From positions 1 through 64,000 of the IMG/VR virus record IMGVR_UViG_3300025867_000014: a stretch of DNA of 64,000 bases. One strand, given 5' to 3'. Shown piece after piece: positions 26,025 through 53,093 of the stretch (positions within the stretch are counted from its first letter, which is position 1; each line of letters starts with the position of its first letter). The notes beneath the pieces were generated by a model that made no database searches, had not been told where the DNA came from, and saw only the letters and a program-made list of their open reading frames with translations. This DNA is from a virus (taxonomy: Duplodnaviria > Caudoviricetes). The position numbers and the translations under genes are program-made.

Positions 26025-26052
26025 ATATTTCCACAATTTTAACTTTTCAAAC

Positions 26053-26084: not shown

Positions 26085-26089
26085 TTTTT

Positions 26090-27119: not shown

Positions 27120-27569
27120 ATGGCAACTTATGGTATTGAATTTCCATTTCGTGATAGTGCGATTGGTAATTATTTAAAAATGACATCTACCCCTGAACGA
27201 GAAGTTAGGGCAAATTTAATTCATTTACTGTTAACTAGAAAAGGTAGTAGATATTATTTACCCGATTTCGGAACACGATTATATGAATATATTTTTGAAA
27301 TGAATGATAATGTTTCATATGGACATATTGAAGAAGAAATAAGGGACGCAGTTAAGAAATATATCCCGAATTTGGACATCAATAGTATTGAAATTGTATC
27401 AGCAGAGAATGATCCTGATAGGGTTAGGACAATTAGTGATGATGAAGACGAAAGATTGTTTAGATATACATCAGAGCCAGCAAGACCATACACCGCAGTC
27501 GTTAAAATTGACTACACAGTAAATAACGGAGCGTTTTCAACATCCGACTTTATAATTATTAACATATAA
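27120..27569 (+). CDS. Baseplate protein (T4 gp25/GPW-like)
   Basis: NLIHLLLTRKGSRYYLPDFGTRLYEYIFE. Confidence 0.9.
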   Translation: MATYGIEFPFRDSAIGNYLKMTSTPEREVRANLIHLLLTRKGSRYYLPDFGTRLYEYIFEMNDNVSYGHIEEEIRDAVKKYIPNLDINSIEIVSAENDPDRVRTISDDEDERLFRYTSEPARPYTAVVKIDYTVNNGAFSTSDFIIINI

Positions 27570-27570
27570 T

Positions 27571-29457: not shown

Positions 29458-32400
29458 ATGGAACAAAAACAAAGAATCAGAACAGAAATTGGTAAAGACC
29501 ACAAAATAAATGTTCAACTCAAACAAGAGTTTGGATTATTAGAAATTTTATCATTAAAATTATCGCAACAAGATATATACACATCATTATGTGCTGATTA
29601 TGGCGTTGTATGTGGAAGAGTTACCGTCAATAATGGATATGGTGTACCAAACGCCAGAGTGTCCATTTTTATTCCTCAATTAACAGAACACGAAGAAGAC
29701 CCGGTTATTTCTGCGTTATATCCGTATAAATCATATGGGGATAAAACAGAAGAAGGGTTTAGATATAATCTATTACCCGCTCGAAGACAACATAGCGGGC
29801 ACGCAGCAACTGGAACATTTCCAGACCAAAATGATATACTATCAAGGGAAGATATACTTGAAGTGTATGAAAATTACTACAAATACACTGTAAAAACAAA
29901 CGATGCTGGCGACTTTATGATTTGGGGTGTTCCATTAGGTGAACAACTAATTCATGTTGACTTAGATGTATCAGATATGGGTTGTTTTTCATTAAGGCCA
30001 GACGATTTCATAAGAAAGGGGTTTGGAATTGATGATTTTAAATCCGCATATGAGTTTAAAACAAGTGAAGACCTTGATTCATTACCACAAATTATAACAT
30101 TTGATAAAGGAATAGAAGTTTATCCATTCTGGGGTAGTGAAGATTTGTGTGAAATCGGAATTACAAGGGTGGATTTTGACTTATCTGAAAGAGGATTAAA
30201 AGTTGAGCCAAGCGCAATGGTAATTGGTGGAACATTTACCGATGACGGAAAGAATTCAATAAATAAAAACTGTAAACCACGAAAGAATATGAGTAAAAAA
30301 TGTTCTTTTGTGACAAATGCGGGAAATATTGATGCAATTCGATTTAGTGATAACTATGATATACATAATCTACCAGTATTGGAAGAATATACGGTTACGG
30401 ATGAAATTAATGACGATGGTTCATTCGCAATCAGGCTTCCAATGAATAGGGATTTTTTATACACCACAGAATTTGGTGAAAATGACTATACGAATGACCC
30501 AAATAAAGGTATTCCAACATCTTCGTGCTATCGATTACGATTTACCTTAACCGATGAAGGACTTGAAAGAGTAAGGGCAAGGGCGTCGTATCTCGTTCCA
30601 AACATACGAGAATTTGAGGGGGATGAAGATAGATCATATGCGTGGTCATTACAATTTTCTGGTTATCCACAAGATGCTCAAGGAATGATATTAAATAATG
30701 TGGATGGTGATTACTACCCGCAAGACTATTTTTATAGATTTCAATATGGTAAAGTTTATACCGTATCGTCATTTCAAAGTATGTTATTTGATTCCCCAAA
30801 AAGAATGTTGGGAATAAATGATATTGTACCATCAGAAGATAAGGATTGTAGTAGTAGTGTGGTAACATTTCCAACAAATATGGGAATTAAGAACACATCA
30901 TTTAATTTTCAATTATTATTGTCATTGGTATTAGCATTTTTGCAATTTGTGTTCTCATCAATATCATTAATTGCATACGAATTTATAGGTTCAATTTTAA
31001 AAACAATTAGCAATGTTATTAATATCGATATTTTTGGATGGAAACCATTCGAAACATTATCTGAACAAATATTAGATGCAGCGTTTAATGTTCAAGCAGC
31101 GGGACAAATAGAATTACCATTAACAATATATGATACTTGTGATTTATGTTCAAATGATGATGAAACAGTTACACAAGGATTTGACCCAAATGCGTTTTGT
31201 AAAATTGCTGAACTTGGAATTGATGTCGTTGGCGTAACAGGCGCAACGGGATACACATACTTTATATTACCAACAAATGTGGGGGCAACGGGTATTAATG
31301 AATCAACAGACCCCGGAACATCAATATATAATCCATCGGGTGGCGCAAGGGATTGTGATGGAAATTCAGAGTGTTGTGGATCATATAAAATATCAACAAG
31401 CGGATATTTGGCAATGAATTCATTATCAACACCTAATTCTTATGGTACAATTTATCCAAGATTTTATATCTATATGGGTGGTCATACAGGTGCTCCAATT
31501 GGTTCAACCGACTTTTATATTACAGGCACCACTGTTGATTTCTCACGATACCCAATAGGAACTTATACGGTTAATGCAACGCCAATTACAGGATTTTGTT
31601 TTACAGATACACAAGTAAAATCATTATTTGGTATTGAAAGCGGCTCAACATATTTTCAAAATAATCAAATAACAAGTGGATATTATGGTTATATAATTGA
31701 TAGAGAATTTCCAAAAATTCCTGTTGGTTCGTATACCGGTATAACCGTTGAAGAAGGTTGTGAAATGTATGATACCGTATATAATGAAAAACATATCAAG
31801 CAGTCATATTTGTGGATAAGCGGTACAACGAAGTATGAAAATCCAGAATTACCAGATATTTCACAACGATTGAATAATAGTATTACACCCGGAATCGAAG
31901 AATCGACAACAAAGCCGACATTCGGAAGTGAGTGGTCAATAGGTGCAACTGTTTTCTATAAACCCGGACAAGGAAGATTACCCCGTTATTACGAATTTAG
32001 TAATATATCTGACCAAAGATATAATAGAAAAACAAAAACCGGATATTCCGAATTTAGGGACGGTGTATTTTTAATAGTTCCATCAATTGATGGTCACTGT
32101 AGACAAAACGCATTTGCATTAAGGGAATGGTATAGAAGAAAAGTTATTGGATTGAATTTTTGTGGTGGTGTTGTTAATTTTGCATTTATAGATAATTGGT
32201 TATCTGGAGCATTATATTTCTTCCAATTTAAGGCGAAAATTAAAGATAAAAAAGATGGCCAGAAAGTAAAAGCTTGTCAAACTGTTGTTAGATATTCAGC
32301 AGAAGACGAAAGGTTTTATTACAGGTCTTGCCCATACCGTTATGATTTGAATCCAAATGCTGAGGTTTGGGGTACGGATAACGAAAAAGGTAATTTAAAA

Positions 32401-33546
32401 TACATTGCGCATCCAACAACATTTGTTGATTTAGGGCCAAGGGATGAATTTATTAAAGAAATATGTTTTGATCCATCGTTAGATCCAAATTGTTCCGTTT
32501 CTCGCTCAATCGGGCCAACATCATTTAAAACATTTGGCGAGTTAGTGGCATTTGCTGTTAACTATAAAATGGATGTTAAAGATTCGGATATGCAAATTAG
32601 GGATTTCTTCAAAAATGATGGATTTTATGCACAGTCAAGTAATGGCTTTAGAGGAAAAATATTTAATGGCGATATTTCACAATTAATTTCAGTAAATAGT
32701 GAAGTGGGAATAGATGGATTTGATTTACAAAATCAAAAATATGCTGGATATAGTATATCAACATTAGATCCGGAAGCGCCAGGAGATATTGATGTGTTTC
32801 AAAATTTTACAGGAACATATGGGCCAACACCCATAACATTAAAATATGAAGATGATGGTGTGCGAATAAGACAATGTTTAAATGCTCCGGGATTTCTTAC
32901 CGAATGTTCACAAAAAGTGCCATTTTATCTATGGGATAAAAAAGGTACAGGATTTGGCCCTCACGATATAACTCAATTAGATGACCAATGTTGGGATTAT
33001 AGTCGTATACATACATCATTTTTACAGGGTATGACATATAACTATAAATGGAATCAATTTATACCAAACGGATTAACTGATCCTGATGACCCATACTTAT
33101 TACCACCAATGAGTTATGATTTTCCAGGTTATTTAGTAACAGGAATAACAGCAAGCGCCCCCGGAGCAGAAGAATTTGATGTTGTTGTTTTAACTTCAGA
33201 TCCAAATTATAGTTCAGATGCTAACACAAAACAAGTTTATCAAAGTATGAATCACGGATTTACACTTTTGATTGCGACGGGTGGTACTATAATGGATCCA
33301 ACAGGTGGTAGATTATATATTAGATTGGGTGAGGGTGGAGATTGGTCAAATGCATTTAATGTGACATCAGATTGGACGCCAGATCGATCATATAGTATAA
33401 TGGCAAGTCGTGATCCGTATATTGATAATAAACAAATTCTATCAACGCCATTTATGTTTTATTTTGGGTTAAGGCCAGGTAAAACAGGTTTGGATTTATT
33501 AATACAACGATTTGGCCCTAAAGGGGCATTTAAACCTATTGAATAA
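29458..33546 (+). CDS. Large baseplate/tail-associated structural protein
   Basis: 1362 aa; N-terminal GVVCGRV..GVPNARVSIF transthyretin/carboxypeptidase-regulatory-like segment; Cys-rich middle; late motif upstream. Confidence 0.6.
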   Translation: MEQKQRIRTEIGKDHKINVQLKQEFGLLEILSLKLSQQDIYTSLCADYGVVCGRVTVNNGYGVPNARVSIFIPQLTEHEEDPVISALYPYKSYGDKTEEGFRYNLLPARRQHSGHAATGTFPDQNDILSREDILEVYENYYKYTVKTNDAGDFMIWGVPLGEQLIHVDLDVSDMGCFSLRPDDFIRKGFGIDDFKSAYEFKTSEDLDSLPQIITFDKGIEVYPFWGSEDLCEIGITRVDFDLSERGLKVEPSAMVIGGTFTDDGKNSINKNCKPRKNMSKKCSFVTNAGNIDAIRFSDNYDIHNLPVLEEYTVTDEINDDGSFAIRLPMNRDFLYTTEFGENDYTNDPNKGIPTSSCYRLRFTLTDEGLERVRARASYLVPNIREFEGDEDRSYAWSLQFSGYPQDAQGMILNNVDGDYYPQDYFYRFQYGKVYTVSSFQSMLFDSPKRMLGINDIVPSEDKDCSSSVVTFPTNMGIKNTSFNFQLLLSLVLAFLQFVFSSISLIAYEFIGSILKTISNVINIDIFGWKPFETLSEQILDAAFNVQAAGQIELPLTIYDTCDLCSNDDETVTQGFDPNAFCKIAELGIDVVGVTGATGYTYFILPTNVGATGINESTDPGTSIYNPSGGARDCDGNSECCGSYKISTSGYLAMNSLSTPNSYGTIYPRFYIYMGGHTGAPIGSTDFYITGTTVDFSRYPIGTYTVNATPITGFCFTDTQVKSLFGIESGSTYFQNNQITSGYYGYIIDREFPKIPVGSYTGITVEEGCEMYDTVYNEKHIKQSYLWISGTTKYENPELPDISQRLNNSITPGIEESTTKPTFGSEWSIGATVFYKPGQGRLPRYYEFSNISDQRYNRKTKTGYSEFRDGVFLIVPSIDGHCRQNAFALREWYRRKVIGLNFCGGVVNFAFIDNWLSGALYFFQFKAKIKDKKDGQKVKACQTVVRYSAEDERFYYRSCPYRYDLNPNAEVWGTDNEKGNLKYIAHPTTFVDLGPRDEFIKEICFDPSLDPNCSVSRSIGPTSFKTFGELVAFAVNYKMDVKDSDMQIRDFFKNDGFYAQSSNGFRGKIFNGDISQLISVNSEVGIDGFDLQNQKYAGYSISTLDPEAPGDIDVFQNFTGTYGPTPITLKYEDDGVRIRQCLNAPGFLTECSQKVPFYLWDKKGTGFGPHDITQLDDQCWDYSRIHTSFLQGMTYNYKWNQFIPNGLTDPDDPYLLPPMSYDFPGYLVTGITASAPGAEEFDVVVLTSDPNYSSDANTKQVYQSMNHGFTLLIATGGTIMDPTGGRLYIRLGEGGDWSNAFNVTSDWTPDRSYSIMASRDPYIDNKQILSTPFMFYFGLRPGKTGLDLLIQRFGPKGAFKPIE

Positions 33547-35339
33547 TGGAACAGAAAAGAATTTTACATCCCGAAAAAAGATACGAAAAGGCACCAAGCG
33601 AAGAAATGTCAATTTCTGTAACGCTTCAGGGTAATAGAAAATTATTAACCAACGATGACAGGGATGTTGTATTGAATGTTGCTGAATTATTTAATACAGA
33701 AAGACAAGAAAGTAAAAATTATAAGATATATGGAAAAATAAAAATGGTTTTTCGTAATATGTACAGCGGAGGCACTCAATATGATTATTTACTTCAAAGG
33801 CTTGCTCTTGTTGGTGATGGATCTAATGGAAATTTCGAAGGATATTTACCATATAACGAATTTGCATTTTTAAGGCAAGATGTTCTTCGTGAAACTATAC
33901 CAACGCCAAAAGTAGATGATTATTATGCCTTTACAGGATTTACAACAACAATAACAGGAACAACAGGGTCTACCTTACACAATACAATTACGCCGATAAA
34001 CGCCCCATATTTCAATTGGAATTTACATCTATCATATGTTTATACTCACGACGCTAATTTTCCAATGATGTACACGCTTAGTGGTCACACAGGATTAACT
34101 TGTAACGGTGTTCAATGTATATCTTTTGTTAGTGGTGATGGAATACCATTTAGAGTAACTGAAAATGGTAGTACATATAAATTAACTAGTCCTGTTGAAC
34201 ACGGAATGAATCAGGGGGAATATATTATTCTTGATAATTTTCCATATTATATTAACTATGTTGCAGACGAAACATACAATTCAGACAAATATGTTATAAA
34301 CATAATGAAAAGTCAAATACCATCTGGTGTAACGACATTTTCAAATCTAATAGTAATAGGAAAAAGATGTTTGGATAAGGAAAATATAACAGGAACAACA
34401 TCCCAATATTATGTTCATAAAATGAAAACATTAAGGGGTGTTGATGATTATATTTTGGATAAAGCGGGATTTGAGTCACCAATTTGGAGGGATGAAAAAA
34501 AGATATTATTTGAAAACAGCGAAGGTACAAATGATGTACTTGTTGAAAGAAATCGAATGGAGAGTGTTCTATTTGATATTAAAGAACCGTTTATTTTAAG
34601 TGGATTAACAAATAATTTAGGTTATCTTCCAACGGAAGTTTATATATCCGTAGTATTAAGAAACGGAAACGGATATTTTGTGTATCCACCGAAAGTTGGG
34701 TTTAAATTCAATTTTCATAATTATTGGATTGATGAACATTTTAGTGGAACGGATTCATTAGAAAGCGCATTAACGGGAACACCATTTAGCCGAAATGGTA
34801 ATGGAGAATCGTTTTTATTTACTAGTGGAAATACCATACCAACAGGAACAATATTAACAGGGGCATTCATTGAGTATGTTCCAACGGAAATGAAAGAAAG
34901 AGTTATTTCGGAGTCGTTATATAAATTTTATTGTGATCCTAATAATTTCAATTATGGGCAAACAGGGCAAACCGCAACATTTTCTGGGGCAACCATAGAT
35001 AATCCTTTTGGATATTTCTATCAACCACATTATAGAATAAAATTAAGGGAATTATCACCATATGTGGAGACAACCGATGTTTTAAACATAGAAAACTTAC
35101 CACAAAACGCAAAATATTTTAGTAATGAAAATCTATGGAAATGGCGAGATTTATATGACCACGGATACATCGATGATTTAGGATACGGCACAGATTATCC
35201 ATTCATCAATAATATTCATTATGTTAAGTCTGACATTAATTTTTATTTAAAGAATGAGGAATTATATACAAATAAAGCGGACGGACTATACAGTTTCAAT
35301 GCAACAACCAATAACGGACAAGATAAAATAAATTGTTAA
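33546..35339 (+). CDS. Structural protein (baseplate periphery), [ST]GxT-rich
   Basis: 597 aa; TAATG-coupled within the structural operon. Confidence 0.6.
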   Translation: MEQKRILHPEKRYEKAPSEEMSISVTLQGNRKLLTNDDRDVVLNVAELFNTERQESKNYKIYGKIKMVFRNMYSGGTQYDYLLQRLALVGDGSNGNFEGYLPYNEFAFLRQDVLRETIPTPKVDDYYAFTGFTTTITGTTGSTLHNTITPINAPYFNWNLHLSYVYTHDANFPMMYTLSGHTGLTCNGVQCISFVSGDGIPFRVTENGSTYKLTSPVEHGMNQGEYIILDNFPYYINYVADETYNSDKYVINIMKSQIPSGVTTFSNLIVIGKRCLDKENITGTTSQYYVHKMKTLRGVDDYILDKAGFESPIWRDEKKILFENSEGTNDVLVERNRMESVLFDIKEPFILSGLTNNLGYLPTEVYISVVLRNGNGYFVYPPKVGFKFNFHNYWIDEHFSGTDSLESALTGTPFSRNGNGESFLFTSGNTIPTGTILTGAFIEYVPTEMKERVISESLYKFYCDPNNFNYGQTGQTATFSGATIDNPFGYFYQPHYRIKLRELSPYVETTDVLNIENLPQNAKYFSNENLWKWRDLYDHGYIDDLGYGTDYPFINNIHYVKSDINFYLKNEELYTNKADGLYSFNATTNNGQDKINC

Positions 35340-36181
35340 TGAAAATTGTAACACAAGATAGTGATTTATCTTTGAATTTGAATATTCAAAACGACTTCAA
35401 ACTTGATTTGGGACGAGAAGATAACCTGAAAGATTTCGAATCCGAAACGCTTAGGAATATTATTAACCCAATTGAAAACTATGAAACATCCAGATTCATT
35501 CATAAACCATATTCCGGAATAACAGCCAATCCAAATGATTTACAATCGGATATTTGGTTTGAATTCTATTTTTATAACAATTTAAACACGCCAACACATT
35601 TAGGCGGGATGAATTACGAATTTGTGGGAATCAGTAAATCCGAAAATATGAAGATGTTGAAACAAGCAACCGAAAGTTTCTTCAGATTAGAGTTTTACAA
35701 AGTTCCGAGTGGGCAAAAACCCGAAAAGACAAATAGAAGGTTGGTTTTTGCAAGAAATTTAGCTCTACCATTAGGTGAAAGAATACTTGGAAGAATAGAT
35801 AACCAATATCAATCGATAGAAGATTGGGACTATCTTTTTGTTCCTGTTTTTGTTGGGTCAAACTACAAAAATAAAGAAAATATGTACATATTTTGGTTTC
35901 AAGATGATAGTTCATTCGATGCAGAGCCAATTTTGACAGGAAATACATTTTATATGACGGCAAGATTCTTTAATGCGGATGACGGAACGATACTGAATTT
36001 TTCAAATAAGGATAAAGCAATAACAGATAATATAAATGAAAATGATGATATGTATTTTGAGGTTGAAATAGATAAAACTGATTATTCGTATCAAGTTTTC
36101 AGATATGACGGAGCAAAAGGAGTAAGAATAGGCCAGAGTGGAAACCCAATAAGATTTTATGAAATAGCCGGCGGAGCATAA
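35339..36181 (+). CDS. Structural protein
   Basis: ATG overlaps upstream TAA (TAATG); beta-rich aromatic composition. Confidence 0.6.
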   Translation: MKIVTQDSDLSLNLNIQNDFKLDLGREDNLKDFESETLRNIINPIENYETSRFIHKPYSGITANPNDLQSDIWFEFYFYNNLNTPTHLGGMNYEFVGISKSENMKMLKQATESFFRLEFYKVPSGQKPEKTNRRLVFARNLALPLGERILGRIDNQYQSIEDWDYLFVPVFVGSNYKNKENMYIFWFQDDSSFDAEPILTGNTFYMTARFFNADDGTILNFSNKDKAITDNINENDDMYFEVEIDKTDYSYQVFRYDGAKGVRIGQSGNPIRFYEIAGGA

Positions 36182-36182
36182 A

Positions 36183-37103
36183 ATGGAAGATAATAGATAT
36201 AGAATAGTAAAACCGCTAACAGGGTCAACTATATTCGATTTACCCGTGTTTCTGACGAGCTTTGCAGAGCAGTTAGGGGTAATGGTCGGTTTTGATGGAA
36301 ATGTCGCCCAAGTTGAGGAAACTTCGAATTTCACTTATAGTGGTAATTCTAATACAATAACAATATTCAATACGGTTAATACAAATAAGTTATCATTTTT
36401 GGTAGAGTCTATTTTTACAATTTATTGGGGTGATGGATCATCAAGTGTTTTACCAATGACAGGTATAAATGATTTAAATCTATCGTCAATATCACACACA
36501 TACACGGTAACAGGAGAAACAATAATAAGGGTTACTATTGAATCACCGTGGACGGTAAATGAACTTCAAAAAACCGTTCAAATCCCATTTGTACCATTTG
36601 ATTTTCCAACAGATTTAGGAACATTAACCTTCACGGTTCCATATAGCGACCCACCTGTGACTACATCACAAACATATTTGGTTGACTATAAAACACAAAC
36701 AGGACAAACGCTCGAAACTGTGATAGGATTTCAGGCTGTTGGAAAAAGTAGAGTAGATGAATTCAGACTATATGGAACAGGAAACCAATATTCGGGGATT
36801 ACAATCGTTTCTGGGTACACAGGTTACACGATTGATGGTTTAACATACATTGATACCCCTGACGGGGATACTATCATTACAGGGTCTACAGCTCAATATT
36901 ATGATGATGAGGTGTATAATGGAATGATAACAAGAAATGAACATTTTATTGGATTTGTGGAAGAACCTGACATATATTCCGATGTTTTTGTCGAAAGAGG
37001 AAAAATGGGAGTGATGGAAAAGAATCTTCGTTTAACTGAAATTGATAATACCGGGGAATTAGAAATCTACGGTAATGGATATTTCAATGTACGAAAACAA
37101 TAA
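36183..37103 (+). CDS. Structural protein with PKD/Ig-like segment
   Basis: FTIYWGDGSS...ISHTYTVTG PKD-like motif. Confidence 0.6.
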   Translation: MEDNRYRIVKPLTGSTIFDLPVFLTSFAEQLGVMVGFDGNVAQVEETSNFTYSGNSNTITIFNTVNTNKLSFLVESIFTIYWGDGSSSVLPMTGINDLNLSSISHTYTVTGETIIRVTIESPWTVNELQKTVQIPFVPFDFPTDLGTLTFTVPYSDPPVTTSQTYLVDYKTQTGQTLETVIGFQAVGKSRVDEFRLYGTGNQYSGITIVSGYTGYTIDGLTYIDTPDGDTIITGSTAQYYDDEVYNGMITRNEHFIGFVEEPDIYSDVFVERGKMGVMEKNLRLTEIDNTGELEIYGNGYFNVRKQ

Positions 37104-37161
37104 AAATTATATTTATAAAAAAATACCCGATAAAGAATAAAATTAATTAAATAACAATAAA

Positions 37162-38070
37162 ATGAGTGTTGGTGCATACGGATTAATCAGGCCAGCGGAT
37201 GTTTCACCCGCCGATGTTGATATTATTTTTCACTATGTTGCAAATAGAACAGCAAATTCTCCCGTTACATTGAAGAAATTGACATCAACAGATGTGCTTA
37301 CCCCTGTATTCCACAATGCGGATACCGGTGGAAATGCTGATGTTGAGCTTTTAGGTGGAATGTATAATTTAAAGTTAGATTCTGGGGACTTTTCAGACCT
37401 CGGAATTTACACATTATATATGAGGCCCAAAGAAATAAGAACAGTAATTACAGATTGCGGTGTTTTATCATCTTTACCATCGGTAAGAGGGTTGGTTATA
37501 GATTTAGCCAATGTATCAAGCGATGATAGAAATAAATTTACACCACAAGGATTAGTTGGGTATCGAATTGAATATTTGGATTCAACAACCAACGAAAAAG
37601 TACCAAACATATATAGAATTGTAACATCATCATTTTATTGCGAACCAATTACATCCAATTTATCCAACACAACACAAAAAGCGTTAAGATATAGGTATTC
37701 TGATGTAGCAACGAACTTAATGTTTTTGACATTAACACCAACATCTGCCCCATCATCAAGGCCGAATGTTGTTCCATTTATAGGACAACCTAATCAAAAA
37801 ATTATAATGACAAACACATATTTTAATCCAACAACGATTGAAATAGAATTAGTTGAACACGACTTTACTACATTATCTTACGCATTGTACAGTAATCAAA
37901 GTAAGGCAGTTGCCAGCGGTGTTTACACAGTATATGACAATAATAACAATATCTACAAACAATGGAACTTGTACGAAATTAAAGACGAGTTTAATGAAAC
38001 TCTATATGAAATTAGAGAAAAGAAGACAGATATTGATGAATCATTAAATTTTGACCTTATTACAGAATAA
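37162..38070 (+). CDS. Structural protein
   Basis: 302 aa; late motif upstream; coupled to next gene. Confidence 0.6.
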   Translation: MSVGAYGLIRPADVSPADVDIIFHYVANRTANSPVTLKKLTSTDVLTPVFHNADTGGNADVELLGGMYNLKLDSGDFSDLGIYTLYMRPKEIRTVITDCGVLSSLPSVRGLVIDLANVSSDDRNKFTPQGLVGYRIEYLDSTTNEKVPNIYRIVTSSFYCEPITSNLSNTTQKALRYRYSDVATNLMFLTLTPTSAPSSRPNVVPFIGQPNQKIIMTNTYFNPTTIEIELVEHDFTTLSYALYSNQSKAVASGVYTVYDNNNNIYKQWNLYEIKDEFNETLYEIREKKTDIDESLNFDLITE

Positions 38071-41000
38071 TGGCAACTACAAAAACACCTAATCAATACG
38101 CGAGTGGCGCCGAAACATTTAGTGACAACCTAGTTGGGTTTCAAGTAGTCGATGGTGTAAGTCAAATGACTAACACATCATTTAACATTGATAGAATTAT
38201 ACCAGAAAAGGATAGTAAAACATTTCAAACACAACCTTTTTCTGATTTTTTGACATTGGACACTATTAATCAAGAAGAAAGCCAGCAAGATACCACTAAC
38301 ACAACGACATCATCATCCACAAAAACATCGGATAAGATAAAATTCTACGATGCAAAAGATGATGGGTCAAAATCGTTGTTTGGGTCGCTTAGCCGTAGAT
38401 TAAATGTTGCTGTAAATAATATAATTACAAAATTTCCAGCCGCTTTATATGTTGACATTGATTCACCGATTAAAACAACAAATTTAAGCGCGGAATCGGT
38501 TGTTTATGATTTAAAAACAAAACAAACCACATTTCAAGTACAAAATAGTCTTATTTTTAATCCGTTAGATATTCTTCTTGTTGAACCAAAAAGTAATACT
38601 AAACCAACAACAACAAATACCATAAGAAATTTTTATTCTTCTTATACAAAATATGTTATTGAAATAAGCGGGGCAACTTACAATATTGTAAATTATACCG
38701 AAGTTGATACTACGAATAAAATAACATTACAGGTTAATGGTGATTGTTTTTCAGGTCAAACAGGGTACACAGCAAGTTATTTAATCAGGCCGAATAATGG
38801 TATTGTTGAAGAATTTTATAGTAATCTTGATGAATTAGAAATAATCTTGATGAACAGGGAAACTATTCCAATGTATCAAGCACCGTTCAAAGTCCCAAGA
38901 GATTTAAATGGCGGATCATCAACAGAACTTGTGACTGAAATAGTAACATGGCCGACAACAAAAGACGGGTGGAATCCTCAAATTATGGGGATTGATTTTG
39001 ATTATTATTTGGAGTCATTAGTATCCATTGGGCAAGATATTGACACATATAAATCAAATTTAGTTGTAAGGTTTTTAACAGCACCGCAATTATTTGAATT
39101 TGATACGCCAGAAAACAAGGCCGAAGCAATATTCCAAATATACGGACAAAGTTTCGACCAAGTAAAGAAATTTATTGATAATATTGCGTTTATGCGTAAT
39201 GTTACCTATGATAAAATCAATAATGTACCTGATTTATTGTTAAAGAATTTAGCAACAACATTAGGTTTGTCAACTATTGGATTATTCGATGAAAAATCAT
39301 TACAAGATTCTTTATATACAAGAACTGACACGCAATACATCGGATTAAACATTGGAAAGAATTTAGTTGAAAGTGAATATGAATTTTACAGAAGAATACT
39401 TGTAAATCTGGCTCAATTATTCAAATCAAAGGGAACAAGAATGGCGATTGAATTTTTCTTAAAATTCATCGGCGCACCCGAACCAATGATAAGATTTGAC
39501 GAATACATTTATAGGATAGACGGGCCGCTTCCAAAATCAACATTTGAGGATGATATTAGGGCCGCAATTCAAGGAAACTATGTATCATATAGTGCATTAT
39601 ACACAGGAGCAACGCCTACTGGAAATGTAATTTATGCTCCATTACAAGTTTCTCCACCATTACCACTAGTTGCCCCAAAATATGTTCTTACAGGAACAAC
39701 AGGGTCAACAACATTAACAAGGGATGAGTATCCAGTTGACCCAAATACTGGATTACCAAGAGGAATGCAGTCATCAGATGGATCTGTATTTTTTGAATTA
39801 GGTGCAGGGTGGTATAGAAAAACCATAGACCATAGGTCACACGATATTTTAGATACCGATAATTCAATTCTTACAGGTAGAACAAAAACTATTAAAACGA
39901 TGTCTAAACCATTCACATATGGTGAAGATTATTTTGATTATTACCGAAAACTACCCGGATTAGATTATGGTTATGATTTAACTGCCGAGATTGATAATTC
40001 GAAGACAGAAATAATCAATACTGAAGCAGAATCACGATACATCTTAAACAGAAAAAATATTAATGTATTTTTATCTTCGGATAGGGTGGTTGATTTTGAC
40101 ATTTATACAAAAAGTAGAAATCTTTTATTAACATTTGGAACTATGACCCCGCCAACGGGAATGACATTTGCAGAATTTTTATCCGATTCGATAAGTGATG
40201 TCATTAAAAATAGTAACACGATAAAATATAAGAGATACTATCAATTTTTGGATGAGATATATAACGATTATAAGAATAGTAGTGGATTTACACCATATAA
40301 CTATATCAAAGTAAACGAATTTATTGAAAGAATGAGTCCATATTGGACTGAAATCATCGACCAATTTGTACCAGCAACAACACTTTGGTTAGGTGGTAAT
40401 TTAATTGAAAACGGAACATATAATAGGTCTAAATTCTGGTATCGAAAACCTTGTACTCCAATTGAACTTTCAGAAACACTATATCCCGATTTTAATGCGG
40501 TTATAGAAGAAGATTTGGAAACAATATTAGGTGGTGGAACAACCAAAGGAATAGATACAGCCGAAGCCAATTTAAGGGGTTTATTTACCTTTAGTGGTTT
40601 AACCTATGTATTATATATCGATGTAAATGGACATATTTTTAGTGGTACAACAGACCCTATCACAACCGATTTGTTTACTGGGTTTACTCCAACAGCAGAT
40701 TGTACATCATTAACAAGTTCAACCGAATCAATACCATTGATTTGTGATTATAAAGATTTAATTGAACCAAATATTCCGGGGATAAAAACAATGTGGATAG
40801 CTGGAATACAAGATTTAGTAAATGAAATAAATCTTCAATCAAATGAAACGGGAGTATCAGTACAAGTGATATTCTTTACCGATGAAAATGGTATTGAGAA
40901 AGTCAAATTCATTTTGATGAATGAAGAATGTAAAGAGGGTGAAAATGTTGATTTCTATTTTGAACCTGTTTATAATGTTCCGAAAAGAACTTGTGATTTA

Positions 41001-43532: not shown

Positions 43533-43553
43533 ATTAAAATTATATAAAGAAAC

Positions 43554-46500
43554 ATGTCACAATATTATTATGTAAAAATAACATCAGGAACAGCCCCCGG
43601 CCCATATAGTGTTTACTATGATTTAGTAGATACTTCTCATTATGCAACTCGTGTATCAACATCATTACCAGCCACGGGTGTTACATATGCCGATTTAACA
43701 ACCGGGGATGGGGTACTAGTAAGTATTCCAGATAGTGCGTTGATTGTTATTTTACATAACGAAACTTGTGATGATAATGACTCATCAAATCCACCCGTTC
43801 CTTGTGAAAATTGCGACCCAAATTATGAATGGTTGCCATATAATCAATACGAGTGTTATAGAGTTGTTTTAACTGGTGCAACCGCGCCAGCATCCCCACT
43901 TAATTTAACGGGAACAACAGGATATACAAGATATAGCGATCTTGGAACGCGCATTTTTAGTACATTTAATGTTGATGGTACGGGTACAGTATCTAATACC
44001 TTAACAACAAATGATGTATGGAGAAATGTTGGTAGTCCGTATCAATTAGTAAGTGGCCCATTAAATAGAAGTGGGTTATGGACAACATTACCTAATGTTG
44101 GAGCAGATATGCAACCAACAGAAGAGTGGGTTGGATTTAGTGTATGTTTAACAGGGATAACGACAGGTAAAACCTATTATGTGGGGATTGCCGCTGACAA
44201 TGATTATAGATTGGTACTTGATGGTGTTCAGATACTTAATACCAGAACAAGGCCATTAGATAGTAATAATCATAGATATTGGAACATTTATCCCATCTAC
44301 ATAAGTGGTGGTGAACATATTTTAGAGTTATTCGGTTTAAATCGATATCATATAGCAGCGTTCGGTTGCGAAATCTATGGTAATACATTATTAGAATTAA
44401 TTTCCGCAACATCTTATAGTCAGTTAGATGTTATATTCACATCAAACGGGCAAACAGAGGCGCCTATTATTCAAACAACAGGTGGAACATATTTGTCATC
44501 GGGATATACCTGCCCAGATGGTTATGTATATTCAGAATGTAGTGGATCCTGCGTTGAATACATTTTTTGTACAGAATTTGAAATATCACCAACACCGACC
44601 CAAACGGTTACACCAACACCCACTCATACACCTACGCCAACACAAACGCCTACACAAACACCGACGCAAACTAATACGCCGACTCCGAGTGAAACGCCAA
44701 CAAACACCCCAACGGTAAGTGAGACACCTACAAATACGCCTACACCAACCAATACATCAACAAACACACCTACTCCGAGTCATACTCCGACAAACACGCC
44801 GGTTCCGTCATCGACGCCGACACAAACCCCAACACCAACGGTAACACCGTCAAATAGTCAAACGCCGAGCGAAACACCAACACAAACCCCAACGCCAACA
44901 AACACGCCGACACAAACAGCGACTCCAACTCAAACGCCTACTAATACACCGACTCCAAGTCAGACGGCTACTAACACGCCTACACCAACAAAAACGCCTA
45001 CGAATACTCCAACAAACACTCGCACACCGTCGCCAACACCGACACAAACTCGTACGCCAACTCAAACACCGACAATTAGTTTGACACCATCACTTACACC
45101 AACTAATACGCCAACAATTAGTCAAACTCCGACTAATACACCTACAATAAGTGAAACGCCAACTAATACACCTACGCCAACACAGACACCAACTATAAGC
45201 GAAACACCAACGCAAACACCAACTGAAACACCTACCAATACGCCAACTCCAACGATAAGCGAAACACCAACACAAACGCCAACTGAAACCCCTACAAATA
45301 CACCTACTCCAAGTGTAACGCCAAGCGAAACGCCAACGCAAACACCCACACCAACCAATACACCTACTGTAAGTGAAACACCAACACAAACGCCAACTAA
45401 TACACCTACTCCGACACAAACACCAACATCAACGGAAACACCGTTATTGTGTATGGGATTATTATATAACTGGTACGCCGCAACCCAAACAGGAACAACA
45501 TCAATTGCAAATACTGGTTGGCATTTAGCAACTAAAGCAGAATGGTTAGCATTAGAAACTTATCTTGGTGGTGCATCCGTTGCGGGTGGTAAGTTAAAAG
45601 AAACAGGATATACATATTGGAATGCTCCAAATACAGGTGCGTCAAATTTAATTGGATATGCCGCTCGTGGCGCTGGTACAAGAAGAGCGGATGGTACATT
45701 CCAAAATATAAAACAGGATCTTAAATTATGGATTGATGACCCAAATGTAATCATATCGGTCAATGGATCAGAACAACAAATTGATTATCATACCGAGGCA
45801 ACCGCTCTTGCATATGCAACAAAATGGTTCGGTCAGTCCGTTAGATTAGTAAAAGACACTCCAAGTGTTAGTCCTAGTGGATATACGGGTAACGATGGTC
45901 GTACTTATGCAACAATTGTTGTAGGATCGGTTGAAATGATGGCAGAGAATCTTGCCGAAACATTATACAGAGATTTAACACCAATACCAGAAGTTACAAG
46001 TAATAGTGCTTGGACAGGGTTAACAACCGGCGCTTTATGTGCATATGAAAATGATTGGTCATCTAATTGTCCAACACCAACACCATTGCCAGGATTAACG
46101 CCAACCCCTACGCCAACTATAAGTGATACACCAACACAAACACCTACGCCAACGAACACGCCAACGCCAAGTATAACTCCAAGCTCAACAACACCAGTAA
46201 TTGGGTCATATGGTGTATTATTTAATGTGGCAGTTCCAAGCGCAGAAGCGTATTATTATGACCCTGTAACAACAAATTCGCAATTATTAACAATTCCAAA
46301 TAACATAAGTAGTCCTGATATTGCACATACGGAAAACAAACTTTGGTTATATGATGAAAATGTAATGATAGAATGGGACATCACTTTAGTTCCATTTACA
46401 GCAACATTTAATAAAAAAATATCTGTACCTGTTACATTATCAGCAGGGCTAACTGCAATAAATGATACAACAGTTGTTGGTGCGTATGAAACATTTGGAA

Positions 46501-47681
46501 CAACAACGATTATTGAAATTGATGTTAGAAATATGCTAGCAACATATATCAATAAATTTTATATAATCGGTAGAACAATTGTTGGTGATATGGTGTTAAC
46601 AACAACGGGTAAATTAATTGTTTCTTTATACGATGGCTCATCATATTATTTAACACAATATGATTATGATACAGGAGATTTGGAAGTTGATATTCCATTA
46701 ACACAAAATAATGTATACGGAATATATGAGTATAACAACGAAATATATTTTGTTAATCAAAATTCAATAACCGAAAGCGAAATATTCCACATTGATAAAA
46801 CATATCCATATGCAATAACATCAGTAGATGTATTACCATATATGGTTATGGGCGCGTCACAAATACCAAGTCAATCAACATCACATTTCGGTTTTTCGGT
46901 TACACCAACACCCACTCCAACAAATACAGTTACTCCAAGTAATACTCCAACGAACACACCTACAATAAGTGAAACACCTACTAATACACCCACGCCAACT
47001 CAAACACCTACAATAAGTGAAACACCTACTAATACACCTACTCCAACTATAAGTGAAACACCCACAAACACACCTACGATAAGCGAGACGCCGACAAATA
47101 CTCCAACCCCAACTAATACGCCAACACCGGGATTAGCACCGAGTTCAACGCCTACGCCAACTCCAACCAATACACCTACGATAAGTGAGACGCCGACAAA
47201 TACACCGACGCCAACGAATACCCCTACAATAAGTGAAACACCGACAAACACGCCTACACCAACTCAAACACCAACGATAAGCGAAACGCCAACTAACACA
47301 CCTACGCCAACTCAAACGCCAACAATAAGTGAAACACCTACTAATACACCGACTCCAACTATAAGTGAAACACCAACACAAACACCTACGCCAACTAATT
47401 TACCGAGCGGAACATATGCGTATATAGTATCAAAAACAATATCTGTGTCAGCATCTGCCGCCTGTAGTCAAACAATGGATACTGTACCATTATATTTGTG
47501 GTCAAATTATCCAATGGCAACATTAGCAACACATAATTTATATACAAACATTAAATTAACCAACATTTATCAACCAGAAAGCAGTGGATATCACAAAATA
47601 ATACAAAATGGGACTGTTGATTATTACTCAGCAGGTATTGCTATTAATGGTACTGTTAATCCAGTTGCTATATGTCATTAA
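43554..47681 (+). CDS. Multi-domain tail fiber/adhesin: adaptor, PA14-like, TP linker, permuted Fib_succ_major, TP, beta-propeller-like, TP, terminal domain
   Basis: 1375 aa; motifs [45 protein letters not shown]. Confidence 0.7.
44586..45440 (+). repeat. Thr-Pro low-complexity coding repeat, block 1
   Basis: ~285 codons of TPT(N/Q)TPT(P/I/V)SE units; further blocks ~46071-46190 and ~46901-47400. Confidence 0.95.
46901..47400 (+). repeat. Thr-Pro low-complexity coding repeat, block 3 ([10 protein letters not shown] units)
   Basis: Near-tandem DNA copies e.g. acacctacaataagtgaaacacctactaatacacc at ~46955 and ~47004. Confidence 0.95.
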
Positions 47682-47731
47682 TAAACGGTTTATAATTTGA
47701 AAAAAAATTGTTATAATATTTATAATTTACA

Positions 47732-48586
47732 ATGACTAACATACAACCGCCACCAGTAGCGAAAACAGGAGTAGTATTAAGATTATATGGAATCGTATCC
47801 CCACATAATTTTAGGGTTTCAATCAAACAGGGTGAAACTGCATATCCATTGGCTAGTGGTTATGTAAACTATAATGGAATATATTCTGGTGGGACAACAC
47901 AAATTGAAATAACGGGAAGAACATTTAATTTTAATACGCAGTATTGGGTTAAATTAACGGATGTTGTTACAGGTCGATATATTATTGAAAATGTATACAT
48001 TAATGATAAAATTGCGTGGGCAGATTGTAATTGTACCGCTCCGTTGATATTATCGGTTGAATGTTATACAGACGAGTTGGATTGCGGCTTATCGTTGTCT
48101 GCAGTATTTGTAAGTGGGCCGCCAGTTACGCCAAGCCCAACGCCAACACATACGCCAACGCCAACACCAACACGAGGGGCAAGTCCAAATCCTACTCCCA
48201 CCCCAACACCAACACCGATTTATTATGATTTAACATATGAATGGGAAAAGATATGTCCGGGTAATAACCTTTGTTCTCGAACATATGGTAATATTAAAGT
48301 AAATGGGGTAACAATTTATTCTTGGACAATATCGGCACCTAATGGTCGGGAAACAGATACCTTATCATTCCCATCAGGGTCAACTATAACTGTTACAGCA
48401 GGAACATATGAGCCAGCTGGTTCTGGATGCGTTGATTATGGTTGTAGTTGTAGCGTTAATATAGAAGATGAAAATTATAGTGATGTGGCAATATCACCGC
48501 CAGATTTTGATACAATAACATATACATATACATTAACACAAGATACAGTAATTCAAATAATGTCGGATTGTTCGTCAATTGCATAA
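47732..48586 (+). CDS. Tail-associated protein: N-domain, TP linker, Ig-like C-domain
   Basis: 284 aa; [12 protein letters not shown] linker; Cys pairs. Confidence 0.7.
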   Translation: MTNIQPPPVAKTGVVLRLYGIVSPHNFRVSIKQGETAYPLASGYVNYNGIYSGGTTQIEITGRTFNFNTQYWVKLTDVVTGRYIIENVYINDKIAWADCNCTAPLILSVECYTDELDCGLSLSAVFVSGPPVTPSPTPTHTPTPTPTRGASPNPTPTPTPTPIYYDLTYEWEKICPGNNLCSRTYGNIKVNGVTIYSWTISAPNGRETDTLSFPSGSTITVTAGTYEPAGSGCVDYGCSCSVNIEDENYSDVAISPPDFDTITYTYTLTQDTVIQIMSDCSSIA

Positions 48587-48598
48587 TATAAATAAGAT

Positions 48599-49438: not shown

Positions 49439-49453
49439 TAAATAAAATAGAAT

Positions 49454-50023
49454 ATGGTAGTATTATTAACAATAACAGCAGGATTAGACACGGGGCCATT
49501 TGATATATACTCAAATGCAACGGGCACATTTGTAATAGTTGAAACAGGAATATCTAAAGCGCAATTGGTTGCTGGATATACTTGTTCAATTATGCCTGAT
49601 GGTACAACTGTAGTACGAGTTAAATCAGTTGGTACTTGTACTAATTTTGTTGATGCTACAATTACATACCCAACTCCGACACCAACACCATCACAAACGC
49701 CTAATTCAACGCCATCACCAACGCCAACCAGAACGCCAACGCCAACGCCTAATCCATCATCACATATGCATCTTGGAACGGCTAATAATTATCCAACAGT
49801 GTTACAGGCTTGTGGTCAAGCATCAAGTAGACCATATTATTCGATAACGCCGGCATTTTATAATGGAATCAGAGTATATGACGATGTTGGTTGTACCATA
49901 CCATTTGTGGGTGCAGGGTTAGGTCATTATTATTTTATTCAAGTACAAGAAAGTGGAAGCACATATAGAGCATATGAAATCGGCGCGACAGGATATATAT
50001 TAACAACGACAGATTGTCCATAA
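49454..50023 (+). CDS. Tail-associated protein: shared adaptor domain, TP linker, small Cys-bracketed C-domain
   Basis: GPFDIY..AQLVAGYTC..PD..VVRVKS.G.C.N. Confidence 0.75.
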   Translation: MVVLLTITAGLDTGPFDIYSNATGTFVIVETGISKAQLVAGYTCSIMPDGTTVVRVKSVGTCTNFVDATITYPTPTPTPSQTPNSTPSPTPTRTPTPTPNPSSHMHLGTANNYPTVLQACGQASSRPYYSITPAFYNGIRVYDDVGCTIPFVGAGLGHYYFIQVQESGSTYRAYEIGATGYILTTTDCP

Positions 50024-50049
50024 AAATAAAAAAAAAACAGAAATAAACA

Positions 50050-50982
50050 ATGGCAGTAATAGTAATGACATGGACACCAACAATAACATCTACGGTTTCG
50101 TATGAGGTTAGATACGCTGTTGCATCACCAAATCCATTCTATACATATTTTTCAACAACATTAACATCAATAACCATTCCCGGGTTAGTGAATGGTGAGA
50201 CATATGTGGTTGGAGTAAGAAGTATATGTGATGGTGGATTATATAGTGAATGGTCGCAACAAATAGTGGTGGTTTGTGACGGAGTTGGCCCATATCATAT
50301 GGAAGGTACTGCAATATACAATAATCAAAATATTGTTGTTTATGGACAATTATATAACTGGTATGCTGGTAATGATGTAAGAATTGCTCAAGCTGGATGG
50401 CATATGCCAACAAACGCCGAATGGAACGCATTAGCAGTTTCGTTAGGTGGGACGGTTCATAACTATCCGACAGCAAATCCGCCGACAGAAAAAGTACAAG
50501 GCCCCGCAGCTGTTGCAATGAAGGGAACAACATTATGGTCGCCGCCGGGTGGGGCTTGTGCTGGAACAAACTCATCTGGTATGAATATACCTCCAAGTGG
50601 TGTTATTACATCGGCAGGGGTGGCTAATCAAAGATTTACTTATGGTAATTTCTGGTGTGCTGACCAACAAACAGCAACATTAGGTAGATATAAGAATTTT
50701 GGCGCAACTAGTTGTGAAATATATAGGTCATTGGTAAATTATGATAAACATTATGGATTTTGCATACGATTAGTTAAAGATAGTGCTGTCGGATGGGTTA
50801 ATGGAACAAAATATACGGATTATGACGGGAATGAATATACTGCAAAATTAATGCCAGACGGTAAAGTTTGGATGACAGAAAATTTAAGAGTATCGAGATT
50901 CAATGATGGTGCAGTAATTCCGGTTGATCCGCCAGATTGGTCAACAACAATATATGGGGCAATGCACACATATAACGGATAA
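50050..50982 (+). CDS. FN3 domain + circularly permuted Fib_succ_major domain
   Basis: MTWTP..SYEVRY..ITIPGLVNGETYVVGVRSIC..SEWS (FN3); YGQLYNWYA..GFCIRLVKD..DYDGNEY..VWMTENL. Confidence 0.75.
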   Translation: MAVIVMTWTPTITSTVSYEVRYAVASPNPFYTYFSTTLTSITIPGLVNGETYVVGVRSICDGGLYSEWSQQIVVVCDGVGPYHMEGTAIYNNQNIVVYGQLYNWYAGNDVRIAQAGWHMPTNAEWNALAVSLGGTVHNYPTANPPTEKVQGPAAVAMKGTTLWSPPGGACAGTNSSGMNIPPSGVITSAGVANQRFTYGNFWCADQQTATLGRYKNFGATSCEIYRSLVNYDKHYGFCIRLVKDSAVGWVNGTKYTDYDGNEYTAKLMPDGKVWMTENLRVSRFNDGAVIPVDPPDWSTTIYGAMHTYNG

Positions 50983-51011
50983 TAAAAAAGTAAAAGGACT
51001 ATTTATAGAAT

Positions 51012-53093
51012 ATGGCATTTTTTAACAACACAGAATCAGAAAATTTATCCGCAAGGATTACCAACAAAGGAAGACAAAAAATTGCGGAAGGTAACTTCAA
51101 TATTGTTTATTTTCAAATTGGAGATTCCGAGTTTGATTATACCTTTCCACAATTAAATGGAACAGATAGGGTTGGAAATCCACCGCAAAAAGTATTTTAT
51201 CCATTGGATAGGGACGCTATTGTTAAATATCCATATAAATTGTCCGAATCAGAAATTACAGGAACAACATTTGGAAACCCAATTCAATCTGCCGAAACAA
51301 CCATATTGACAAACAATATGGGGGCGGCAGGATTTGTAAGCGAATATTCATCAACCGGGGCAACTGTAGGTTGTGATTATGTAGAAATAGATATTACCAA
51401 AATAAGTGGGACGACTACTTTGATTCTTCCAACGGGGGTCACATTCTATGGATGTGAATACATTACAATTGCATACCATCAATTAACAGGTACAGACCCA
51501 GACAATCCGATTATTTCAACATCAGCAAACAGTTTAGTATATAGGGTTGTAACAGGGGTTACGGGTGCCAGTTTTAACACGCTAACATTGGATAGGAAAA
51601 TGCCGGATTTATCCGGATTTTCGGGATATGCAACTGTTATGTGTAATAAATGTAACCCATTTTTTAGAGGAACAAATGTCCCTACGCCTGATTGTGTAAT
51701 AGTAACACAAGACCCTGAAGATAGACAGGATCCGTGGACAATGAATATTGTATGGGGTAAAAAACCTGCGGGTATGGATGTTCCATATGTTATAGATGAA
51801 GAATTATCAGGATATACAAGTAATGTTTTTGTTTCAACTAAAGAATATTTCGGGTACAACTCAATATTAGGTCAACTTACAAATACGGGGACGACAATTG
51901 TTAATTCATTAGGGGATGTAATTGTAGTTCCGCCAGATGAACAACACTCATTAGCAATTGTTCATTATGCTGAAGTAAATAATTCATTAGAACCCGAGAA
52001 GTTTTTCAAATATGAAGATTATATTGCACATACAGATAGTGATGACATAACATATTTCGAAGTTTACATACCATATATCCTTTATCATAGAAATACAGGG
52101 ACAACCATCGGTGCAAGATTCTTTATGGATACCGTTGATTATTATGTTAATTCCGCGGCACAAGATACCAAATTGGATAAAATAAAATACCGTTACTTAA
52201 AAGATGAAAATGGGTTTAATGTGGGAAAAGTTTTTGTTAACCATAAAACCATTATATTTGACGACCAAGAAATTGTTGCGGCGTTAGATTATAAATCAAA
52301 CAGAAAATATACATTACCTATTCCAAGAGTATCACAGATACCTACCGACTTAAAATGTTCAACAAATACTGTCGGTTCAGCGACGCCATTAATGGCAGGA
52401 AATACAGGTGAAACTATGTTTATTAGTTATCTATTTGTGATGACGGGGAACACAGGAATGACAGGAATGCATTGTAATTATTATTCGAAAGTTACGGGTA
52501 CATCTTTGAACGCAGATGTCGCTATTAATTTCTCGACAACCGATTTTGTTTTTATGACCAATAATCTTTCAACATATAAAACAAAATACATAGCAAATAA
52601 ATTCTTTGTTTTGGCTCAAATGGTAAATACGGGCGAACAACCATTACCTGATGGTTGGAAAATAATTGATTTTACCGCAGAAATACCTAATCATACTGTT
52701 GGTACATACATTAATCCTGTTAATATGCGTGGGGCAAGATTTATTCTTACATATGATGATTATGACAACGCAAGTAAGTATGATATTGAAGATTATTTAG
52801 GATTATTCCCAGATGAACCATCAACCGCGCCAGAATTCGGTGATACACAACCATTCCCGGGTAGTATAAAGTTTGTTAGAGCAACCGATATACATACAAT
52901 GAGATTTTTGATTAATTTACCATCAAGTCAATTTATAACAACACAAAATCCTACATATGTTGCAGGAACATCAAAATGGATAACAGAAGTGGCGTTATTA
53001 AATGAAAATAAAGATGTTATGGTAATAGCAAAAACATCAAAACCGGTAAAAAGAACTGGAACGCAAGTTATTGGTGTAAAAATCGACCTGTAA
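51012..53093 (+). CDS. Tail/baseplate protein; termini resemble tail-fiber attachment (DUF3751-like) halves
   Basis: ITNKGRQKIA..YFQIGD at N-end; ITEVALLNENKDVMVIAK at C-end. Confidence 0.55.
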   Translation: MAFFNNTESENLSARITNKGRQKIAEGNFNIVYFQIGDSEFDYTFPQLNGTDRVGNPPQKVFYPLDRDAIVKYPYKLSESEITGTTFGNPIQSAETTILTNNMGAAGFVSEYSSTGATVGCDYVEIDITKISGTTTLILPTGVTFYGCEYITIAYHQLTGTDPDNPIISTSANSLVYRVVTGVTGASFNTLTLDRKMPDLSGFSGYATVMCNKCNPFFRGTNVPTPDCVIVTQDPEDRQDPWTMNIVWGKKPAGMDVPYVIDEELSGYTSNVFVSTKEYFGYNSILGQLTNTGTTIVNSLGDVIVVPPDEQHSLAIVHYAEVNNSLEPEKFFKYEDYIAHTDSDDITYFEVYIPYILYHRNTGTTIGARFFMDTVDYYVNSAAQDTKLDKIKYRYLKDENGFNVGKVFVNHKTIIFDDQEIVAALDYKSNRKYTLPIPRVSQIPTDLKCSTNTVGSATPLMAGNTGETMFISYLFVMTGNTGMTGMHCNYYSKVTGTSLNADVAINFSTTDFVFMTNNLSTYKTKYIANKFFVLAQMVNTGEQPLPDGWKIIDFTAEIPNHTVGTYINPVNMRGARFILTYDDYDNASKYDIEDYLGLFPDEPSTAPEFGDTQPFPGSIKFVRATDIHTMRFLINLPSSQFITTQNPTYVAGTSKWITEVALLNENKDVMVIAKTSKPVKRTGTQVIGVKIDL

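Follow-up and report, generated by a model that had tools for sequence, protein, structure and literature searches.

The stretch analysed here (hereafter the window) comprises 64,000 nucleotides of a tailed virus (Duplodnaviria; Caudoviricetes), positions 1 to 64,000 of IMG/VR record IMGVR_UViG_3300025867_000014, and the element in question is a four-residue protein motif, [ST]-G-x-T, that recurs in the large proteins encoded between positions 29458 and 53093. A preliminary description made from the sequence alone had proposed this motif as a modification sequon restricted to peripheral virion proteins. The window sits in a 77.6-kb contig, which CheckV places at ~25% of a genome, and its large genes all lie on the plus strand. 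The left part holds the tape measure gene, the giant open reading frames (ORFs, named by their first position) 5116 and 10162 and replication genes (a RecA/UvsX-like protein, an exonuclease, DnaB, a class II ribonucleotide reductase (RNR) and a homing endonuclease); gp25-like and gp6-like baseplate wedge genes follow, and then the large-protein block 29458-53093, in which Pfam and PHROG matches are almost nil. Across the motif-carrying proteins, Pfam and PHROGs scans returned only Fib_succ_major, fn3 and one PHROG of unknown function. The gp6-like protein shares 25–28% identity with those of Flavobacterium phage immuto, an uncultured 484-kb phage and Microcystis phage Mel-JY01, and 73–86% identity with matches in IMG/VR contigs that number in the hundreds and reach 310 kb. 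Given these hundreds of matches, the source is a fragment of a roughly 300-kb jumbo phage from an abundant, uncultured clade of jumbo myophages, for which we drew a comparison sample of 160 related loci.

Ten ORFs of the window carry the motif (lengths in amino acids, aa; expected counts from composition unless stated):

29458..33546, plus strand: 1362-aa baseplate protein directly after the gp6-like wedge gene; 8 motifs vs 1.2 expected, with a chained TGATGYT at 31237-31257
33546..35339, plus strand: 597-aa conserved baseplate protein; 12 motifs vs 0.6 expected; the best test case
35333..36181, plus strand: 282-aa protein; 2 motifs vs 0.1 expected
36183..37103, plus strand: 306-aa protein; 7 motifs vs 0.8 expected, with a chained SGYTGYT at 36810-36830
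38070..43532, plus strand: 1820-aa fibre-type protein; 26 motifs vs 2.3 expected
43554..47681, plus strand: 1375-aa fibre with Thr-Pro linkers and a Fib_succ_major domain; 12 motifs vs 5.0 expected by composition and 2.6–2.8 by local shuffles
47732..48586, plus strand: 284-aa protein; 3 motifs vs 0.6 expected
51012..53093, plus strand: 693-aa conserved virion protein; 11 motifs vs 0.9 expected
5116..9852, plus strand: 1578-aa protein after the tape measure; 6 motifs vs 1.7 expected (weak, p = 0.01)
10162..15855, plus strand: 1897-aa protein; 5 motifs vs 1.5 expected (weak, p = 0.016)

Together these proteins hold 92 motifs where composition predicts 14.7 (6.3 times), and the earlier hand tallies (12 of the 17 [ST]G dipeptides of ORF 33546, and 7, ~26, 12, 11, 8, 6 and 5 motifs elsewhere) were reproduced exactly, as was the failure of all 28 [ST]G dipeptides in NrdJ, DnaB, RecA and Rad50 to fit the motif. 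Such an excess could stem artefactually from composition, low-complexity sequence, paralogy or a word at the DNA level, since Thr and Gly abound in the carriers (the Thr-Pro linkers bring ORF 43554 to 23% Thr) and one 264-aa segment with 52% identity is common to ORFs 38070 and 43554. Yet the shuffled controls that the preliminary description had called for fail to reproduce it: shuffling within 10-residue windows, which keeps local T/G richness, yields 16.6 ± 3.9 motifs and shuffling within 20-residue windows 14.4 ± 3.8, and in 1000 per-protein shuffles the observed count was never reached for ORFs 29458, 33546, 36183, 38070 and 51012, so T/G composition is not the source of the enrichment. 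In a survey of all three-residue gapped patterns, TGxT ranks first (50 observed vs 5.4 expected; z = 19) and SGxT second (27 vs 3.9; z = 11.7), with the next pattern at z = 6.9. The grammar is strict, with Ser or Thr alone at the first position (position 0) and Thr alone at position 3: neither G-x-T without a leading hydroxyl nor [ST]-G without a trailing Thr is enriched, and permuted or altered patterns stay at 0.5–1.6 times expectation (reversed and shifted ones at 1.0–1.6; [ST]G.S at 1.0, [ND]G.T at 0.8 and [ST]A.T at 0.6). Part of the value of 2.2 for [ST]GT is a second count of motifs whose x is itself Thr (TGTT, SGTT). The motif is spelled with varied codons, which speaks against a DNA-level word, and chained units have only 3–7 of 9 bases in common, which leaves a recent 9-bp duplication unsupported as their origin. 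Beyond the 264-aa segment no paralogy was found among the carriers, in line with the earlier claim that the motif behaves as a sequon rather than as a domain repeat. Shuffles, mixed codons and flat permuted patterns thus refute an artefactual origin, to which we would concede only a vanishingly small chance: the motif is a real and specific protein-level signal. It is distinct, as had been proposed, from the Bacteroidota motif D-(S/T)-(A/I/L/V/M/T), which occurs 29 times in the ten carriers vs 41.0 expected; N-[^P]-[ST] is likewise not enriched in them (97 observed vs 121.7 expected), and our literature searches found no described [ST]-G-x-T sequon.

The distribution of the motif among other proteins of the window follows the preliminary description in part. 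Its claim that the tape measure and the gp25-like and gp6-like proteins hold no motif stands, and the small ORFs before the tape measure hold none either. Other motif-free proteins are listed here with the gp25-like and gp6-like comparators:

27120..29403, plus strand: gp25-like and gp6-like inner wedge proteins; 0 motifs
37162..38070, plus strand: 302-aa protein inside the motif-rich block, without a family match; 0 motifs
48599 and 50050: lectin-type tip proteins, peripheral; 0 motifs

Among 158 gp6-like homologues of the clade, ~3 motifs were counted vs ~69 expected, and the gp6-like, gp25-like and RNR proteins are essentially motif-free in every clade. Outer tail and baseplate proteins are enriched as described, but a restriction to peripheral proteins is too strong a statement, because the tips and the ORF 37162 protein (highly conserved, at 57–72% identity in all three clade groups) lack the motif, while the major head protein of a 93%-complete relative bears it (4 vs 0.55 expected). 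The lectin-type Fib_succ_major domains lie on the Thr-Pro fibre (43554-47681) and, fused to fn3, in 50050-50982. Single motifs also occur in enzymes: in close relatives (loci L001-L080), homologues of the exonuclease, DnaB and RecA (20274-21293, 21763-23385 and 19199-20191 in the window) tend to hold one each (~1.0, 0.8 and 0.7 per protein), and those of this phage hold none.

The protein of ORF 33546 has >1000 homologues, which allowed its sites to be followed from close to distant relatives. Within the close clade (115 homologues at 55–86% identity; median of 9 motifs), 5 of the 12 sites are kept in 72–96% of proteins. The three specified positions are retained at 0.60 vs 0.24 for coil triples of the same protein, and a hydroxyl persists at positions 0 and 3 in 0.77–0.85 vs 0.59–0.60 for other Ser/Thr; as both exceed their controls, the motif sites are under purifying selection within this clade. 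At 26–43% identity, full-length representatives hold 0–6 motifs (mostly 0–3), and an alignment of 39 homologues at 30–43% identity has a single site, S74, in common with ORF 33546, the other 11 either falling within segments that the distant proteins lack (seven sites) or being swapped for unrelated residues (four sites). The fold does not need the motif, and the motif arrived with lineage-specific loops. In the AlphaFold2 (AF2) model (predicted local distance difference test, pLDDT, of 81), 73% of motif residues are coil vs 49% overall and the two chained copies fall where pLDDT is below 50, such that the mapping on a model suggested in the preliminary description, judged by secondary structure and confidence only, places most sites in coil or low-confidence loops. 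Searches for a structural parallel to ORF 33546 gave no Foldseek match in the PDB at E <= 0.001 and a sole VIA-align wide match to a small beta-barrel (residues 194–281; Z ~7), a common arrangement; PDB sequence searches with the ORF 33546 profile and with ORF 51012 returned nothing.

Between clades, the motif proves to be lineage-specific. For ORFs 29458, 33546, 35333 and 36183, respectively, enrichment is 4.3, 16.5, 7.2 and 9.2 times in the close clade (where ORF 35333 homologues average 3.6 motifs per protein), 2.4, 5.8, 2.7 and 8.1 times in a more distant clade, and 0.2, 3.1, 0 and 1.6 times in a sister clade. In the ORF 36183 family, density is similar in the two motif-rich clades (8.7 per protein for the close clade, 6.0 for the distant one), but only ~4–5 of 26 frequent motif columns coincide between them, and the TGST or SGVT of one clade stands opposite IANS or NGQP in the other. 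Site positions in this family thus turn over while density is kept, and distant homologues of the same fold can lack sites, as the sequon-like behaviour claimed earlier would have it. The ORF 51012 family (119 homologues; median of 11 motifs) has seven sites kept in 71–92% of its members and motif starts spread over 74 different alignment columns. The apparently motif-poor sister clade, in whose inner baseplate proteins the motif is missing, was considered as a natural missing-enzyme control and rejected, because its 191-kb genome has motif-rich proteins elsewhere (other large proteins with 25, 18 and 14 motifs), for example:

G006:C1:30392-35414: sister-clade carriers, a 940-aa protein with 14 motifs and a 724-aa protein with 25 motifs

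The set of carriers thus changes between clades, and the grammar drifts as well, with [ST]-A-x-T enriched 2.5–4 times in three distant genomes (G006, G007 and G009) and not in the close clade. Outside the ingroup, three myophages with a related gp6 wedge module hold 2, 5 and 22 motifs vs 1.6, 4.5 and 12.3 expected; in phage immuto the excess is weak at most (1.8-fold), and the baseplate and fibre proteins of T4 hold 4 motifs vs ~3.6 expected.

Taken together, the specificity of the motif, the dispensability of its sites to the fold, their location in loops, their selection, and their turnover with kept density and a lineage grammar point to something acting in trans, for which a modification enzyme would be the simplest agent able to act on many proteins. 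We therefore put forward [ST]-G-x-T as a candidate modification sequon, a reading that we prefer tentatively and to which we would give slightly less than an even chance. Specifically, hydrophobic-[S/T]-G-x-T would be a short linear recognition motif in predicted exposed loops of outer virion proteins, used by what looks to be a large clade of uncultured freshwater jumbo myophages. We infer that the motif would mark sites of cytoplasmic post-translational modification and that the group attached there would be a sugar; the favoured chemistry is O-glycosylation of Thr, and perhaps of the Ser/Thr at position 0 too, by a phage-encoded GT-A glycosyltransferase, with further phage transferases then extending the glycan into what may be a coat on the tail periphery.

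The reader need not be a glycosyltransferase. A phage or host kinase or other modifying enzyme, an assembly chaperone, a docking decoration protein or a host-surface ligand might recognize the motif instead, given that a motif spread through a lineage and over many proteins, at flexible positions, needs some trans-acting reader but leaves its kind unspecified, and that no transferase could be tied to the motif. We consider such readers improbable, as ~90 sites in ten proteins of very different copy number would be hard for one docking partner to serve, and as the conserved enzymes that stand out most in the relatives are those for building glycans, whose genes are also reported as core in a possibly related lineage (PMC12619734).

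The earlier statement that the window encodes no glycosyltransferase holds for the whole contig, itself only ~25% of a genome, and candidate enzymes come from the relatives. All nine larger relatives have GT2 matches (2–9 each, several per gene in places), and the relatives encode the enzymes needed for building glycans. Three loci are of interest:

L091:4319-16428 (G004:C1:99318-111427), minus strand: 12-kb single-strand glycan operon of a related jumbo phage
L195:5470-6249 (G001:C1:265470-266249): 259-aa GT-A (GT2-like) protein, from a local all-against-all comparison of five genomes
G009:C1:3619-6417, minus strand: 932-aa ORF, a fusion of a TIGR04414 heptosyltransferase (294 bits) and GT2, in one distant relative only

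The operon, which occurs in two closely similar relatives (that of G004 is described here), encodes an NAD-dependent epimerase/dehydratase, a UDP-GlcNAc 2-epimerase, two FkbM methyltransferases, at least five glycosyltransferases (GT2, GT-D-like and Glyco_tranf_2_5) and several unknown proteins; none of its genes could be recognised as Wzx/Wzy-type. A glutamine synthetase gene and two DNA methylase genes adjoin it. The 259-aa GT-A protein is the best, and a reasonable, candidate for the reader of the motif. It has >3000 metagenomic homologues, the 120 best at 70–97% identity, with an invariant E-x-D-D-E stretch (the DD pair), and it is modelled with a clear GT-A fold (Foldseek matches at 1e-11 to K4CP, TarP and WrtF, and one to a polypeptide GalNAc-transferase at rank 36). 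In G001, its gene is ~10 kb away from the major head gene and three genes upstream of the gene for a 649-aa protein that bears the motif. Seven of nine ingroup genomes encode it, the two without it being 60% and 75% complete and the contig of G004 stopping short of the place where it would be expected; neither immuto nor any of the 50,697 cultured phage records has it. Two other enzyme classes were set aside by their distribution. The BAHT (TibC/Aah-type) enzymes cannot be the general reader because TIGR04414 has a match above cut-off in G009 only and none in G001-G008 or G010 (two of the eight BAHT-free relatives being 92–93% complete), and GT41 was ruled out as PF13844 is absent from five relatives.

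Several observations weigh against a modification sequon, and some of them concern the enzymes. The co-occurrence with glycosyltransferase genes that the preliminary description had looked to does not discriminate: GT2 genes are present in all relatives and also in immuto, despite its weak excess at most, and GT2 presence was rejected as a marker. The fold matches of the 259-aa protein are generic GT-A enzymes with sugar or polyol acceptors, and its association with the motif rests on one phylogenetic split and is thus confounded by ancestry. Phage transferases, moreover, often target DNA or host polysaccharide. Nor is depletion from non-virion proteins, as a sign of avoidance, general: in the rest of the G001 proteome (335 proteins with fewer than 3 motifs), 55 motifs were observed vs 47.7 expected. 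What is supported of the modification interpretation is the protein-level, sequon-like unit, its loops and its turnover; the modification itself and its enzyme are putative.

Other observations on the same side concern the sites themselves and suggest a structural habit of loop building, in which a self-capping ST-turn, a left-handed Gly and a second hydroxyl that caps the return would form the loop and nothing would read the motif or be attached to it. In an ST- or Asx-turn, the side-chain oxygen of residue i contacts the backbone NH of residue i+2, and Asn/Asp can replace Ser/Thr. A lineage with this habit would use the turn whenever an exposed loop is added or rebuilt after a buried strand residue. 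At conserved sites, such as the well-kept ones of ORF 33546, Gly is near-invariant, as expected of a self-capping turn, and Ser and Thr swap freely at position 0. Asn/Asp are the commonest non-hydroxyl replacements, which is what an ST/Asx-turn would predict: they make up 23–63% of replacements at positions 0 and 3 vs 22% at other Ser/Thr, and 33–58% at position 0, with control Ser/Thr that were not limited to loops. The residue at −1 is hydrophobic in 54–56% of sites vs 34% background (53–74% across all six genomes), fitting a strand-to-loop junction, and the sites of ORF 33546 lie at strand ends and helix starts, several of them conserved in position as noted above. The resemblance to Asx/ST-turns lies in the Ser/Thr, or Asn/Asp, then a small residue at such a junction, and in Asn/Asp as replacements in homologues.

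However, capping motifs of this kind are universal and not lineage-specific, and they do not account for the exclusive use of Thr at +3, for the way the motif arose jointly in many unrelated proteins within a single phage clade, or for positions that turn over at steady density. The same folds occur without the motif, and the three outgroups with the gp6 module are not enriched. Some clades accept Ala at position 1, which a left-handed Gly would forbid; Ser at position 3 is not enriched here, though the capping hydroxyl could be Ser or Thr; and local secondary structure varies from site to site. We regard a purely structural origin, the chief alternative, as a serious possibility, if a somewhat doubtful one.

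A cytoplasmic sequon of this kind would have partial parallels in known systems. TibC and Aah O-glycosylate many Ser/Thr of the beta-rich surface proteins TibA and AIDA-I in the cytoplasm, in a short strand-loop-strand context; the difference lies in the enzyme family (TIGR04414), which eight of the relatives here lack. Neither Bacteroidota general O-glycosylation nor GT41 N-glycosylation matches the sites. In the cytoplasm of Clostridioides difficile, SgtA modifies the Thr of G-P-T triplets with O-GlcNAc (PMC7157674), and its substrate BclA3, like Bacillus BclA, resembles the present case in its Gly-x-Thr unit with Thr as the acceptor, as does the enzyme in being a soluble Mn-dependent transferase that acts inside the cell on a surface structural protein and tolerates Ser (PMC7157674). 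The chained TGxTGxT reads like two or three BclA-type triplets. BclA3, however, is a long collagen-like triplet array, whereas motifs here are isolated or at most doubled (the longest chain has two units) in globular beta-rich proteins, and Ser/Thr is needed just before Gly, unlike in the G-x-T of BclA3. A metal-dependent GT-A transferase encoded with its substrate would be a further mark of an SgtA-type system; the present contig has none, and the 259-aa protein of the relatives, with its DD pair, would be a candidate counterpart.

Among phages, mycobacteriophage virions are O-glycosylated by phage-encoded glycosyltransferases (Freeman et al. 2023, PMC10527164, as cited in PMC12619734). As summarised there, the likeness is that phage transferases would decorate virion proteins made in the cytoplasm, and the difference is that in mycobacteriophages it is the C-terminal tails of capsid and tail-tube subunits that are glycosylated, as against ~90 dispersed loop motifs of baseplate and fibre proteins here; the motifs are spread along the chains, and the small ORFs before the tape measure, taken as the tube region, are motif-free. 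The same paper describes “moraphages,” large freshwater phages with predicted Bacteroidota hosts, in which four putative glycosyltransferase families are among the orthologous groups common to most genomes (PMC12619734). The present clade resembles them in its traits: 200–330 kb freshwater metagenomic contigs, a glutamine synthetase gene, homing endonucleases and several glycosyltransferases. The [ST]-G-x-T motif is not described in that paper. In the window, two homing-endonuclease-like ORFs (25982-27106 and 857-1750) both match phrog_3339 and have weak mutual similarity, and one of them separates the RNR gene from the gp25-like baseplate gene.

These data and comparisons suggest, as a possible though rather uncertain picture, that an abundant clade of freshwater jumbo phages (probably of Bacteroidota) uses an undescribed, dispersed sequon at which a conserved GT-A enzyme, together with glycan operons that vary by lineage, coats baseplate, fibres and capsid with sugars in the cytoplasm, and that its sites move as those of animal-virus glycan shields do. 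This window adds a comparison of each site with distant homologues, a test for turnover of positions, and a conserved GT-A as candidate enzyme. Were the motif purely structural, it would still be a useful marker of exposed loops and of the clade. To our knowledge, phage virion glycosylation is known from few systems only, and there on terminal tails. If the sequon is true, a four-residue code spread over about a dozen virion proteins of a globally abundant phage lineage would constitute the first phage “glycan shield” with a readable code, would offer a cytoplasmic O-glycosylation tag of potential use in glycoengineering, and would account for the many glycosyltransferases retained in the core genome of these jumbo phages.

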